Positions 39,501 through 42,500 of a stretch of 64,000 nucleotides of DNA are shown piece by piece; position 1 is the stretch's first letter; every line of letters starts with the position of its first letter. The DNA is from an uncultured Clostridium sp. (GTDB taxonomy: Bacteria; Bacillota; Clostridia; TANB77; CAG-508): NCBI GenBank assembly GCA_902462295.1, contig CABQAZ010000002.1:66151-130150 (forward strand), given 5' to 3'. Position numbers: made by a program.

Positions 39501-42500
39501 ATAATGAAGCTGTCGCAGAGTGTCTTAATTTATCTATTTCATCATTTATTGATGCATCTTTTTCAATATATGTATCTGATTGTGCAATATAACTTTCTGG
39601 TTGATAATAATCATAATATGAAACAAAATATTCAACATGGTTTTCTGGAAAAAATTCTTTGAATTCGGAATATAGTTGTCCTGCTAGTGTTTTATTATGT
39701 GCTAATACTAATGTTGGCTTCTGTGTTTTTTCTATTATGTTTGCCATTGTAAATGTTTTTCCAGAACCTGTTACTCCTAGAAGTGTCTGATATTTTTCGC
39801 CTTTTTCTATTCCTTTTACTAAATAATCTATTGCCTTAGGTTGGTCGCCTGTTGGCTTGTATTCTGAGTGTAATTTAAACATATTTTCCTCCTTCTTAAT
39901 TGTAATTAAAAATTTGTCCCACTATATAATTAACTACTTTTTATAAAAGTGAAAATCATAGTAATCTTGTCCATAGCCTAAAGTTTTTTTCGAGTATATC
40001 CTAATTATAATGCTTCTACCAATTATTATATCAACTTACAAACTTAATTACTCGTAATTTTTTTCACAAACTCTATATAATTTTTTTCTAAATAAATTCA
40101 AACCTTAAATATCTTTTCCGGATTATACATTGGTCTTTTTAAGGTTTCATTTTTTAACTCATTTAAAACTTAAAACTTTTCTTGCATATTATATTATATT
40201 TTTTCAATAACTTCAACTGTTTTCTCACTATTCTGCAAACGTGTAGGATACAAGACAATAGTTTTGATTAATATTATCAACAAAAACATAAAATATAAAC
40301 TTTACATTTTATGTTAATTGTGATATAATATATATGCAGTCACAAAAAATATTCAAAAAAGGAGAATGCTTATGTTCGACATCAAAGGAAAAGCAACAGC
40401 AAATGTTTTCGTGAAAGGGTTTGCACAGGAAGTAGATTATGACAAACTGGTCAGCCCATCAGATTGCCAGGGCGAGTTCGTAGCGATTATCACCGACCTC
40501 GTTACATCAGAACCACTTATGGTAACATCAGCGGTTCTGACAGAGGCTGGAAAGTGGAGCCTCAAATGTACTGATGGTACCGCTTTAGAACTCGAAGCAG
40601 AACCAAAAAAACCTCGTGAAATGGTATATGCAATACCTGTAACCAATTTCAGAGAGTCTGTTTGGGGTAACAGCTACGATGTAGTTTTCCCAGAGGATTA
40701 CGACATCGTCAGCAGAGCAATTTCTGAAGGCAGTAAACAGTCCTATAGACTCATCGGCTATATTGACCGTCAAAAGGTTGTAACAAGCCGTTTTGTGAAA
40801 TTTTGGACTGATGGAACAGGAAAACACCACGGCATAACCAAGAGTGGATCTCATTATGTATTTTAATACATAACACTGCTTTTGCCGTCTCCCCCCCTAT
40901 TGATGTAAATGCATCATTGGGGGGTTTTCTATATTGACTTGTTATGTCAATTATGCTATAATTTTCAATGTTCCTAATAAATCATTAGGATTAATTTAAT
41001 AATCTCCTTATGGAGTTAACATATATAACAAGTAATCAACAATAAATATTTAAGGAGGTATTTGAATGAGTGAAAAAAACAAAGATTTCTATGTGTGGAC
41101 AATTACAAAATATATCAACTCCACTCATAAATGGTGGGGAATTGATATAATGTCCATATACGACAACATCAAAAAAGATTTTCCTAATGCTACAGAAGCA
41201 ATTCAAAAAATGTATCACAAGTTAAGAAAACCCAATTTCTACAAATCTAAACTTTTAGTTTTTGAGCAAGCTGAATACATTTATGAAGCTATTGCAAATT
41301 TAATTCCGCAGTACAATGAACTTCAATATACTATAACAACTAAAGAACAATCACAAAAATATGAAGAATTGAATATGCACTCTTGGAATCGGTTTATAGA
41401 AACTAGCCGTATTGACTTGCTTATGGCTATTTTATTGTTCACAGAAGAATTTATTTTAGAACCTGTACAAAGTGACAATGTAAATCTTACTGACAATCAT
41501 CTTACTGTAATTGGAAACTTTGTTACTCTCGAAGTATCAAGAAAAGAAGATAAAACACATATCTCTATTCTAGTTAGAGATGTTATACTTCTTAAATATG
41601 CGATACTCAATTAACTTAAAAGACAATATAGAATATTATTTTCTATATTGCCTTTTTTTAAAATATTTCTTCTATAATTTTCTCTGCAATATCTTCTTTA
41701 CCAGAAGCAATAGTATAATCATTAAATCCTTTAACAATAAACGCTTTATGGCTACCTTTTCTGATATTTTCTAAATCATTAGCAACTACCAAATTACAAT
41801 TATTTTTATTTTTCAAATTAATTGCAGTATCAATTAATTCCTTTTCACTAACATTATCAAGTAATTTAAATCCCACTAAATATGTACTTGGACTGATATC
41901 TTTTATCATAGATATTATTTTAGGTGTTTTCTTTAATTTAATAATTAAATTCTCTTTATTAGATGAAATTTTATTATCATTCAAATTTTCTTTATTAGAG
42001 CAAATTAAATCAATAACACTTTTATTAGGATTACTGCTTATATTTAAAGCCAGATTTTCTGCAGTTGTAACATAATCAACAGAATAATCTGATACAGCCA
42101 TAGAATGTATAAAATAATCTATTTTATTACTTGTTAATAATCCTTTTACTGATATCTCTAAATCTTTAGTATCTGTAATTTCAATAATTTGAATTTTAGG
42201 ATGTATTGGTTTGAATGAACTTTTTGAGCAAATATAATAAATTTTTTCTATTTGTTCTTCATTTGATTGTATTAATTTATTTGCTATTGTACATCCTAAT
42301 TTTCCAGAACTACTATTTGTTATTTTTCTTACATTATCTATTTTTTCACTGGTTCCTCCTGCTGTTATAATTACTTTTTTCATTTTATCTTTCCTCCTTT
42401 ATCAACTTTTTAATATAATCAATTATTTCTTTATTTTGTGGAAGTTTTCCTTTAGCTTCATCTCCACAAGCAAGATGTCCTACAGTTGGTTCAATAATTT

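Follow-up and report, generated by a model that had tools for sequence, protein, structure and literature searches.

A self-contained mobile gene cassette from an uncultured Clostridium that may encode a lone protein for genetic conflicts

We found that a small gene (ORF2, 41066-41614) in the window (the whole 64-kb stretch of DNA that we analyzed) belongs to a self-contained mobile unit of about 0.73 kb. This unit, at 40933-41659, comprises the ORF, its promoter and terminator, and a structured leader about 96 nt long. ORF2 is probably an autonomous cargo gene that plays a part when mobile elements, phages, and the host come into conflict. Our best explanation, a mobile cassette with a single protein that acts in such conflicts, has a probability of roughly 0.5. 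In the window's genome, the cassette seems to have settled next to another, unrelated cassette (ORF1) between uvrB and coaB. Even if the conflict reading is wrong, what had been described as an orphan two-gene islet becomes two unrelated mobile cassettes, and a palindrome in the ORF2 promoter is dropped as a feature. (All genes, promoters, leader elements, and terminators for which we give coordinates are on the plus strand.)

ORF2 is a real gene under purifying selection, because its homologs form 130 clusters of constant length, dN/dS within the family is 0.12-0.29, and the AlphaFold (AF2) model has a pLDDT of 93.2 (pTM 0.90). An earlier note on this stretch, which was made from the sequence alone, had called ORF2 an orphan, but this is wrong: it has at least 130 clusters of homologs (49-97% identity), almost all of about 182 amino acids. 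The coordinates and the length of 182 amino acids in that note are correct, and so is its perfect Shine-Dalgarno sequence (SD; AAGGAGG at 41052-41058, 7 nt upstream of the ATG at 41066). The product is a predicted soluble protein with a pI of 6.0, and the family as a whole is modeled as soluble alpha/beta proteins. The family's signature is WGxD[LIM]x[ST] and RxDLxxAxLLFxEEF. When distant members are compared, only Tyr9, Gly25, and Asp117 are kept.

The earlier remark that ORF2 has no recognizable family still stands, as profile scans with Pfam, PADLOC, PHROGs, and NCBIfam gave no significant match and the family is uncharacterized. Ten distant members of the family had no match in Pfam either. 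A comparison of the family's profile to PDB sequences gave only noise, and the predicted fold matched nothing in PDB or BFVD. As to defense-related HMMs, PADLOC gave no system match for ORF2 or for ORF1. (Its best hit for the window's ORF2 protein was JetC, with E = 0.011, which is coiled-coil noise.) When 23 diverse members of the ORF2 family were compared to PADLOC-DB v2, one of them (among P0127-P0144) matched PDC-M15B, at a marginal E = 5.7e-5; our literature search found PDC-M15 mentioned in no paper. The matches to the ORF2 family also include a 323-amino-acid "fusion" relative (P0214).

The cassette is mobile, because ORF2 relatives are found in about 19 different contexts and the GC3 of ORF2 is twice that of host genes. 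Its boundaries are sharp, as a comparison with lineage L008 shows, whose protein is 69% identical: the DNA homology covers exactly 40933-41658 and nothing beyond. The homology begins at the ORF2 promoter, which is thus the left boundary of the cassette. The right boundary is the ORF2 terminator (41618-41659; -12.7 kcal/mol, z = -6.39), whose T run lies directly against the stop codon of coaB, a convergent gene. The promoter, leader, and terminator accompany ORF2 in all lineages compared. As for composition, which had been described as host-like, this is true of total GC (0.291, vs. 0.274) and not of GC3 (0.246, vs. 0.09-0.13 in the flanking host genes). The suggestion of an accessory gene with its own transcription, outside the core genome, is borne out; nearly every lineage has ORF2 at a locus of its own.

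The uvrB-coaB interval had been proposed for comparison across related genomes. The islet with ORF1 and ORF2 is present in all recovered contigs of the window's species, so this comparison yielded no empty site. We also looked for traces of insertion at the cassette's ends. An imperfect direct repeat of 19 nt (40925-40943 and 41639-41657) has 17 of 19 positions identical, 12 of them as an exact run, TTTTCTATATTG. A shared word of at least 12 nt occurs in 0.6% of random pairs of zones. (A second direct repeat near the cassette lies inside the coding sequence of coaB.) We rejected both repeats as attachment sites or target site duplications: the right copy of the first is inside the ORF2 terminator, the second is in coaB, and neither is present in relatives. 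The 12-nt repeat probably reflects chance or local history. By eye, the lone cassette has no terminal inverted repeats, and we identified no transposition mechanism for it.

In several lineages, the cassette lies among the genes of an integrative element. In L018 and L019, the order of serine recombinase, Mob_Pre, a 98-amino-acid gene, and ORF2 is complete. (In L018, TnpV and NikA-like genes follow ORF2.) L020 has Mob_Pre, the 98-amino-acid gene, and ORF2, and then the contig ends. L024 has a recombinase, Mob_Pre, and ORF2, with just the 3' end of the 98-amino-acid gene upstream of ORF2, and in L039 this 3' end alone is found upstream of ORF2. Tn4451-like integrative mobilizable elements combine a MobV/Mob_Pre relaxase with a large serine recombinase (PMC5704250); the elements in L018-L020 and L024 match this type. 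We propose that the ORF2 cassette is cargo of Tn4451-like elements, and that it also resides in small variable islets by tRNA or housekeeping genes. (tRNA or tmRNA genes are upstream of ORF2 relatives in L008, L001/L002, L012, and L018.) The likeness has limits: the window's copy lacks both a recombinase and a relaxase in its vicinity, its neighbors being uvrB, coaBC, LysR, and dockerin/cadherin genes, and the known cargo of these elements is mostly antibiotic resistance, while ORF2 is uncharacterized.

The position of ORF2 directly behind the relaxase and the 98-amino-acid gene in L018-L020, and the corresponding remnants in L024 and L039, also fit another possibility, which we consider unlikely without being far-fetched. 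ORF2 could serve integrative mobilizable elements in counter-defense or establishment, as a small non-enzymatic inhibitor. Expressed strongly upon entry into a new host, it would shield the element from restriction, Thoeris, or the like, and the chromosomal copies would be remnants of decayed elements. The strong consensus promoter, the frequent occurrence in tRNA-adjacent islets, and a small soluble protein with no catalytic-looking invariant motif (distant members keep just three residues) are all consistent with this. But ORF2 is not similar to known anti-defense proteins or folds, and many lone copies are kept under purifying selection in chromosomes that lack the element's backbone. Also, anti-defense genes are common in phage and plasmid collections, and the ORF2 family is absent from both: tblastn found no member in 72,556 plasmid records or in 50,697 phage records. 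The one match to the family in IMG/VR is at a contig edge, with a host-type flank that carries truA.

Some neighbors favor a role in conflicts. Genes near ORF2 relatives include ThsB (E = 7e-78) together with PDC-M50A, Old (E = 6e-21), AbiD (E = 4e-53), and PDC-S13 (E = 1e-102). Defense-type neighbors are present in about 6 of the 19 contexts; PDC-S13 is a candidate system only. Among 88 flanking proteins (up to three genes on either side of ORF2 relatives, from about 18 contexts), 9 match PADLOC, which looks like enrichment, in a small sample without a matched control. These matches are PDC-S13 (three times), PDC-M50A (twice), ThsB, AbiD, Old, and PDC-S04. (A flanking ThiF was scored by PADLOC as E1-E2 and is probably a housekeeping protein.) From gene neighborhoods, the association of ORF2 with defense genes appears to be moderate, because about half of the contexts have housekeeping neighbors only (ftsY, argS, thrS, truA, or ThiF).

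Those housekeeping contexts, together with long purifying selection and the fixation of the islet in the recovered contigs of the window's species, would also be expected if ORF2 were an ordinary host protein (for instance, for stress or growth phase) that rearrangements had reshuffled among coincidental neighbors. We think that this is quite unlikely. It does not fit the different locus in nearly every lineage, the sharp boundaries of the cassette, the deviation in GC3 from flanking genes, or the copies inside elements with serine recombinases and Mob_Pre. The seeming enrichment of PADLOC matches among the neighbors, even with one that is probably a housekeeping ThiF, also argues against it. 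Furthermore, the family is small and patchy: a profile search of 1.84 billion proteins found 54 representative clusters. Its members come almost entirely from gut and other metagenome assemblies, and the two that are in genome records are from metagenome-assembled genomes of Clostridia.

Returning to the conflict reading, we consider it most likely that the ORF2 protein works without a partner when mobile elements, phages, and hosts come into conflict. We lean towards single-gene defense or exclusion, with counter-defense as a close alternative. Like AbiD/Abi_2 or Old, ORF2 is a small stand-alone gene in variable regions, and AbiD, Old, ThsB with PDC-M50A, and PDC-S13 are among its neighbors. 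Its leader may damp translation, which would fit a harmful product. Unlike those systems, ORF2 has no similarity in sequence or fold to PADLOC models, and only about a third of its contexts have defense genes. Also weighing against our reading are the lack of matches in Pfam, PADLOC, PHROGs, NCBIfam, PDB, and BFVD, the absence of the family from the phage and plasmid records searched, and the window copy's lack of mobilization genes around it. If the conflict reading is correct, then ORF2 is a compact single-gene effector with a predicted fold unmatched in PDB and BFVD, and it adds to the defense or counter-defense repertoire of AT-rich gut Clostridia, which are poorly studied.

The earlier note had proposed that ORF1 and ORF2 form a two-component module, such as a toxin with its immunity protein, an abortive-infection pair, or a two-gene anti-phage system. 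In the window's species, the two genes are direct neighbors with the same orientation, and both encode dark-matter proteins. ORF1 (40372-40866) is GC-rich and encodes 164 amino acids from the ATG at 40372. (An alternative start at 40366 is too near the SD.) The model of ORF1 (AF2, pLDDT 86) is mostly beta, and we found no significant match for it in Pfam, NCBIfam, PADLOC, or PHROGs and no matching fold in PDB. However, ORF2 most probably does not make up a two-gene system together with ORF1. The two co-occur only in the window's species (L004-L007, L022, and L052/L053), so an obligate module is not supported: ORF1-like genes occur without ORF2 in L014-L017, and ORF2-like genes occur without ORF1 in all lineages outside the window's species (about 18 contexts). 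Family sizes are very unequal, with 6 clusters for ORF1, a rare family on an independent cassette, and 130 for ORF2, and GC3 differs (0.38 vs. about 0.25).

The predicted transcription points the same way. The terminator that had been proposed between the genes is indeed there, at 40893-40928: it has a C7/G6 stem with an inner hairpin and a T run (-22.7 kcal/mol, z = -4.44). (A simple terminator scan missed it because its loop is long.) Given this strong terminator (z = -4.4) and a separate promoter for ORF2 with 11 of 12 consensus positions, we predict that the genes do not share an operon. They may be co-regulated, since both promoters carry an exact core, TTATGTYAATTRTGNTATAAT, but the same core also drives at least three other unrelated small genes. 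Neither ORF1 nor ORF2 has homology to toxins, antitoxins, immunity proteins, or Abi proteins in Pfam, NCBIfam, PADLOC, or PHROGs. A two-component module thus seems highly improbable, and the phyletic independence of the two families largely refutes it.

Two such units side by side are reminiscent of phage "morons," which Hendrix and colleagues reportedly described as autonomous units of promoter, gene, and terminator between conserved genes. Like a moron, the ORF2 cassette carries a single small gene between a sigma-70-type promoter and an intrinsic terminator of its own, its composition is unlike that of its neighbors, and it sits exactly between conserved genes that are unrelated to it. Unlike a moron, it is not in a prophage and has no match in phage genomes and essentially none in IMG/VR; it is carried by mobilizable elements and by islets in chromosomes.

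The ORF2 promoter is real and near-consensus. It is of the sigma-A type (TTGACT-17-TATAAT, 40934-40962) with 11 of 12 consensus matches and a TG-extended -10 element, and transcription would be constitutive and strong. Its -35 element does overlap a perfect inverted repeat of 5 bp with a 7-nt spacer (TTGAC-N7-GTCAA; 40934-40938 and 40946-40950), as had been reported, but this palindrome is at chance level, is not conserved, and is not worth pursuing. The suggestion that it is a repressor site, an operator at which a dimeric repressor would switch ORF2 off, is very unlikely. The repeat is kept in L032/L033, at 58% protein identity, and a spacer of unusual conservation among the cassettes, TTATGTYAATTRTG, may indicate that a protein binds some part of the promoter. 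Against this, 5-bp inverted repeats with spacers of 3-12 nt are found once per 45 nt in the window, and the cassette travels without any regulator gene. Furthermore, among about nine lineages with related promoters, only the window's clade and L032/L033 have the palindrome; in L035 (the sister of L032), L008, L026, L034, L036, and L037, the right arm is lost and the promoter is kept.

The leader is more strongly conserved than the gene: about 60 nt of it (40982-41041) are 90-97% identical between lineages whose coding sequences are 70-79% identical. At the predicted 5' end of the mRNA is a hairpin of 7 bp, P1 (UCCUAAU-AAAUC-AUUAGGA, 40972-40990), which covaries across lineages, with compensatory changes in three pairs (C-G/U-A and A-U/G-C). 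A conserved core follows (40991-41058). It holds a second hairpin, P2 (CUCC at 41004-41007 with GGAG at 41012-41015), an anti-SD sequence (UCUCCUUA, 41003-41010), and the SD with its 5' flank (TAAGGAGG, 41051-41058). P2 varies across lineages (CUCC/GGAG, CCUG/CAGG, or CUUGC/GCAAG), with compensatory changes in L036 and in the type-C leaders. The helix of anti-SD with SD is part of both the predicted minimum free energy structure and the RNAalifold consensus, and it is nearly invariant in sequence. We propose that P1 stabilizes the mRNA and that the leader tunes translation, as CUCC would pair either locally with GGAG (in P2) or with the SD.

Leaders that sequester the SD, stabilizer hairpins, and STAB-SD elements are found in mRNAs of Firmicutes such as ermC, aprE, and cryIIIA. 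The 5'-proximal covarying hairpin, the CUCC that can pair with the SD, and the SD-like GGAG all resemble these. On the other hand, the ORF2 leader has no Rfam match (among the covariance models of Rfam 15, the best was for a nematode snoRNA, with E = 0.83) and no leader peptide with an SD, its occlusion energy is unexceptional, and its sequence conservation goes far beyond what such simple roles call for. A 20-mer search of IMG/VR with the leader found no match. We rejected exceptional occlusion of the SD (its opening energy of 6.9 kcal/mol ranks 7th of 33 genes in the window, and no z-score for the leader's fold is significant). We also rejected translation attenuation of the erm/cat type, because the candidate upstream ORF (MELTYITSNQQ, 11 codons, ATG at 41010) lacks both an SD and conservation: L034, L036, and L037 have a truncated version or none. 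Type III toxin-antitoxin systems (ToxIN, AbiQ) are similar in that a toxin-sized protein of about 180 amino acids follows a conserved stretch of non-coding RNA, with a single promoter for both, and in that the locus is on mobile DNA with Abi genes close by. We rejected this as well, because TRF finds no tandem repeats in 40200-41700; there is also no terminator between the leader and ORF2, which lacks homology or fold similarity to ToxN or AbiQ.

Finally, the promoter core is shared more widely than ORF1 and ORF2. In the 64-kb window, TTATGTYAATTRTGNTATAAT has only two sites, both exact, which are the ORF2 promoter and the ORF1 promoter (TTTACA-17-TATAAT, 40301-40329), against an expected count of 0.38, even when up to three mismatches are allowed. 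Beyond the window, five small-gene families have this core in common. More speculatively, and with the odds clearly against the full picture, the ORF2 cassette might belong to a pool of small cargo genes that has gone undescribed in gut Clostridia and has a common control circuit, its leader of about 60 nt might be a new cis-regulatory RNA, and its protein might be a single-gene defense or counter-defense effector with a new fold. The pool would hold at least five families (ORF2, ORF1, a family of 123-128 amino acids, a family of 90 amino acids, and a gene of 126 amino acids), all with TTATGTNAATTRTG-N-TATAAT and several with structured leaders. The shared modules suggest a common circuit that would activate cargo, for example, upon transfer or when phages attack. 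They would also be a practical handle for finding more dark-matter cargo genes in gut Clostridia, by a search for the module and a look at the gene behind it. ORF2-like genes and the 126-amino-acid gene share a whole interchangeable promoter-leader module: the type-B promoter and leader also precede this unrelated gene in L024.

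Two plus-strand genes, the GC-rich ORF1 (40372-40866) and ORF2 (182 residues, ending at 41614), lie between two minus-strand loci: uvrB at 37927-39882 and the pair coaB and coaC at 41658-42936, which has DFP and Flavoprotein domains. ORF2 has its own plus-strand signals: a promoter at 40934-40962 (TTGACT-17-TATAAT, which fits the consensus at 11 of 12 positions and has a TG extension of the -10), a perfect Shine-Dalgarno (SD) sequence (AAGGAGG, 41052-41058, 7 nt ahead of the ATG at 41066), and a terminator hairpin (41618-41659, z = -6.4). It is separated from ORF1 by that gene's strong terminator (40893-40928, plus strand; -22.7 kcal/mol, z = -4.4). 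The features that the earlier note described are all present, including a perfect 5-bp inverted repeat over the -35 box (TTGAC at 40934-40938, GTCAA at 40946-40950). The earlier note considered this palindrome a possible repressor site, but its presence is no more than chance would give. The window is AT-rich and has one such repeat, with a spacer of 3-12 nt, for every 45 nt. Also, among about nine related promoter lineages, only the window's clade and L032/L033 retain the right arm. The promoter persists without that arm in L008, L026, L034, L036, L037, and L035, a sister of L032. (A 19-nt imperfect direct repeat, at 40925-40943 and 41639-41657, flanks the ORF2 cassette; 12 nt of it are exact, TTTTCTATATTG, and 0.6% of random zone pairs share a word that long. 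The right copy is the descending arm of the ORF2 terminator, which departs from the family consensus.)

Contrary to the earlier note, ORF2 is not an orphan. A word-indexed search recovered 130 clusters of homologues (49-97% identity), almost all of exactly 182 amino acids and none with an annotation. An exhaustive profile search gave 54 representative clusters, with full-length relatives of about 170-200 amino acids and many shorter fragments. None of the 54 is fused to another domain, barring two long repetitive sequences that matched through many short stretches, and a second profile search added no annotated relative. (P0214, from a 26-kb contig, is called as a 323-amino-acid relative with a 143-amino-acid N-terminal extension, which reflects a genuine fusion or else a gene call that read through.) ORF2 is a real gene under selection (pairwise dN/dS within the family is 0.12-0.29). 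Two motifs mark the family, WGxD[LIM]x[ST] around residue 24 and RxDLxxAxLLFxEEF at residues 115-129; only Y9, G25, and D117 are nearly invariant across the most distant relatives. That the protein belongs to no recognisable family still holds: there was no significant match among Pfam, PADLOC, PHROGs, NCBIfam, or PDB-sequence profiles. (PDC-M15B, a PADLOC candidate component, matched one distant family member among P0127-P0144 at E = 5.7e-5, alignment A8.) An AlphaFold2 model from a 56-sequence alignment (pLDDT 93.2, pTM 0.90) predicts four N-terminal helices and then a mixed sheet ending in a five-strand meander. As for composition, ORF2 is host-like in total GC but not in GC3, which is 0.246 versus 0.09-0.13 in uvrB, coaB, coaC, lysR, and the cadherin-like gene (0.38 in ORF1).

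The stretch from promoter to terminator is a discrete unit that has been moved repeatedly. In L008, where the protein is 69% identical, BLASTN similarity to the window fills 40933-41658 precisely (-35 box through terminator T run) and is absent elsewhere. In every lineage, the ORF2 relative comes with a promoter, about 100 nt of leader, and a terminator of its own, and we found about 19 distinct contexts. These include mobilizable elements and tRNA-adjacent islets. In L008, the relative lies between rqcH and ftsY, directly behind tRNA-Thr; in L012, it follows tmRNA, tRNA-Gly, and AbiD; in L001, L002, and L029, it follows a Bro-N/PDC-S13 gene and tRNA-Leu; and in L024, it follows Mob_Pre and opposes an Old-family nuclease gene. 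In L018, the order is tRNA-Gly, a serine recombinase, Mob_Pre, a 98-amino-acid gene, ORF2, ThsB, and PDC-M50A; another recombinase/TnpV element comes next. (L018 1448-11898 is a tandem pair of serine-recombinase elements adjoining tRNA-Gly, the first with Mob_Pre, ORF2, ThsB, and PDC-M50A and the second with TnpV and a NikA-like gene.) Other relatives stand alone beside argS, thrS, truA, ThiF, LemA, or PAP2 genes. The recombinase and relaxase backbone agrees with integrative mobilizable elements of the Tn4451 type (PMC5704250). No member of the family was found among 72,556 plasmids or 50,697 phage genomes, and the single IMG/VR occurrence is at the edge of a contig, with a host-type flank. 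The ORF2 unit is best read as an autonomous mobile cargo cassette.

The identities of these neighbours were confirmed with PADLOC (ThsB, 7e-78; PDC-M50A, 6e-20; Old, 6e-21; AbiD, 4e-53; PDC-S13, 1e-102). When 88 proteins flanking ORF2 relatives were scanned, 9 matched defence or candidate models, one of them probably a housekeeping ThiF. Because the gene is kept under selection in chromosomes and adjoins ThsB, Old, and AbiD, we lean towards a role in defence or exclusion, with the protein probably acting alone in conflicts among mobile elements, phages, and the host. Counter-defence by the mobilizable element is a close alternative. A plain host function is less likely but conceivable, since housekeeping genes are the neighbours in about half of the contexts.

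ORF2 is independent of ORF1. The earlier note proposed that they form a two-component accessory module, and the pair is fixed in all recovered contigs of the window's species. Beyond this species, the two families occur independently, so an obligate module is unsupported. ORF1 has only six clusters of homologues, and those in L014-L017 occur without any ORF2 relative. The ORF1 family always has higher GC than its hosts (0.35-0.43 versus 0.21-0.29; L014 6001-6483, L017 1386-1868, window 40372-40866), and its distinctive GC-rich terminators are also conserved. For ORF1, the predicted structure (pLDDT 86) consists mostly of beta strands and has no match in the PDB. (ORF1 likely starts at ATG 40372, 8-9 nt behind AGGAGA, rather than at 40366; most relatives start at the aligned position, with MFDIKG in the window's clade.) ORF1 and ORF2 seem to be two cassettes that gathered at a single hotspot. 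By the same dockerin/cadherin operon, L014 has an ORF1 relative and a PDC-S13-like gene; the L002 hotspot has an ORF2 relative and PDC-S13. (Related genera share this operon, found at window 43968-47100, L002 649-3547, and L014 1-2771, and these small cassettes have landed repeatedly in the DNA adjoining it.) Overall, the earlier note's observations were confirmed in part, and its interpretation is partly supported.

The two cassettes share a promoter core. The window has just two copies of it (TTATGTYAATTRTGNTATAAT), one in the ORF1 promoter and one in the ORF2 promoter; 0.38 copies are expected even if 3 mismatches are allowed. Across some 300-440 kb of related loci, every match precedes a small hypothetical gene by 42-103 nt (shuffles expect 0). 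These genes are the ORF2 relatives, the ORF1 relatives of all three lineages, a family of 123-128 amino acids in L001/L002, a 90-amino-acid family 3' of the ORF2 relative in L021, L032, and L040, and a 126-amino-acid gene in L024. The RTGNTATAAT portion is the well-known Gram-positive -16/-10 element; the TTATGTNAAT portion is specific to these cassettes. A promoter core, TTATGTNAATTRTG-N-TATAAT, is common to at least five unrelated families of small hypothetical genes (window 40309-40329 and 40942-40962; L001 10542-10700 and L002 11043-11175, both minus strand; L021 606; L024 5598-5740; L014 5919; L017 1312) and never precedes a housekeeping gene in those 300-440 kb. This suggests that mobile cargo genes are under a common promoter module or regulon.

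The leader is conserved along with the promoter core. The 75 nt upstream of the ORF2 ATG are 91-97% identical between the window and lineages whose coding sequences are 70-79% identical, and 40982-41041 are the best-conserved 60 nt of the whole cassette. With a covariance model, this leader (type A) was recovered upstream of relatives with as little as 44% protein identity, and a diverged version was recovered at type-C loci. Where the mRNA is predicted to begin, hairpin P1 (40972-40990) covaries, with compensatory changes at three pairs; it probably stabilises the transcript. For hairpin P2, most lineages have CUCC-UUAU-GGAG, L036 has CCUG-UUUUU-CAGG, and type-C leaders have CUUGC-AAGUU-GCAAG. 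The 5' arm of P2 also complements the SD (UCUCCUUA:UAAGGAGG), and this long-range helix is predicted in both the minimum-free-energy structure and the RNAalifold consensus. The helix hardly varies in sequence across lineages; in L036, the SD flank is altered to ACAGGAGG, which matches UCCUGU. The CUCC/GGAG/SD triad probably tunes translation. The fold z-scores of the leader are not significant, and the opening energy of the ribosome-binding site (6.9 kcal/mol) ranks only 7th of 33 window genes. An 11-codon upstream ORF begins in the P2 loop; no SD precedes it, and three lineages have only a broken version. The leader matched no Rfam family, and the locus has no tandem repeats. (In one clade, at L001 5761-5967, L029 1954-2160, L027 7761, and L030 183, a conserved 68-amino-acid ORF with its own SD separates the leader from the ORF2 relative and stops 33 nt short of that gene. 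It has no Pfam match and could be a partner or regulator.)

The type-B promoter and leader of ORF2 relatives in L018, L012, and L025 also drive the unrelated 126-amino-acid gene in L024 (about 85-90% identity), so cargo genes exchange expression modules. (The shared module is about 125 nt, the whole promoter and leader: L024 5598-5740 versus L018 5868-6012, L012 5868-6012, and L025 7880-8012. The L024 gene is in the same mobilizable element as an ORF2 relative.) These portable modules, and the predicted ORF2 fold without a match, are worth following.

Beside the islet, 2157 bp of the window (41807-43963), with coaC, a LysR gene, and the 5' portion of coaB, are missing from the closely related strains L004-L007 (98% identical DNA). 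Only a 149-nt remnant of the 3' end of coaB is left, adjoining the cadherin-like gene, so the CoA-synthesis genes here are dispensable or duplicated elsewhere.
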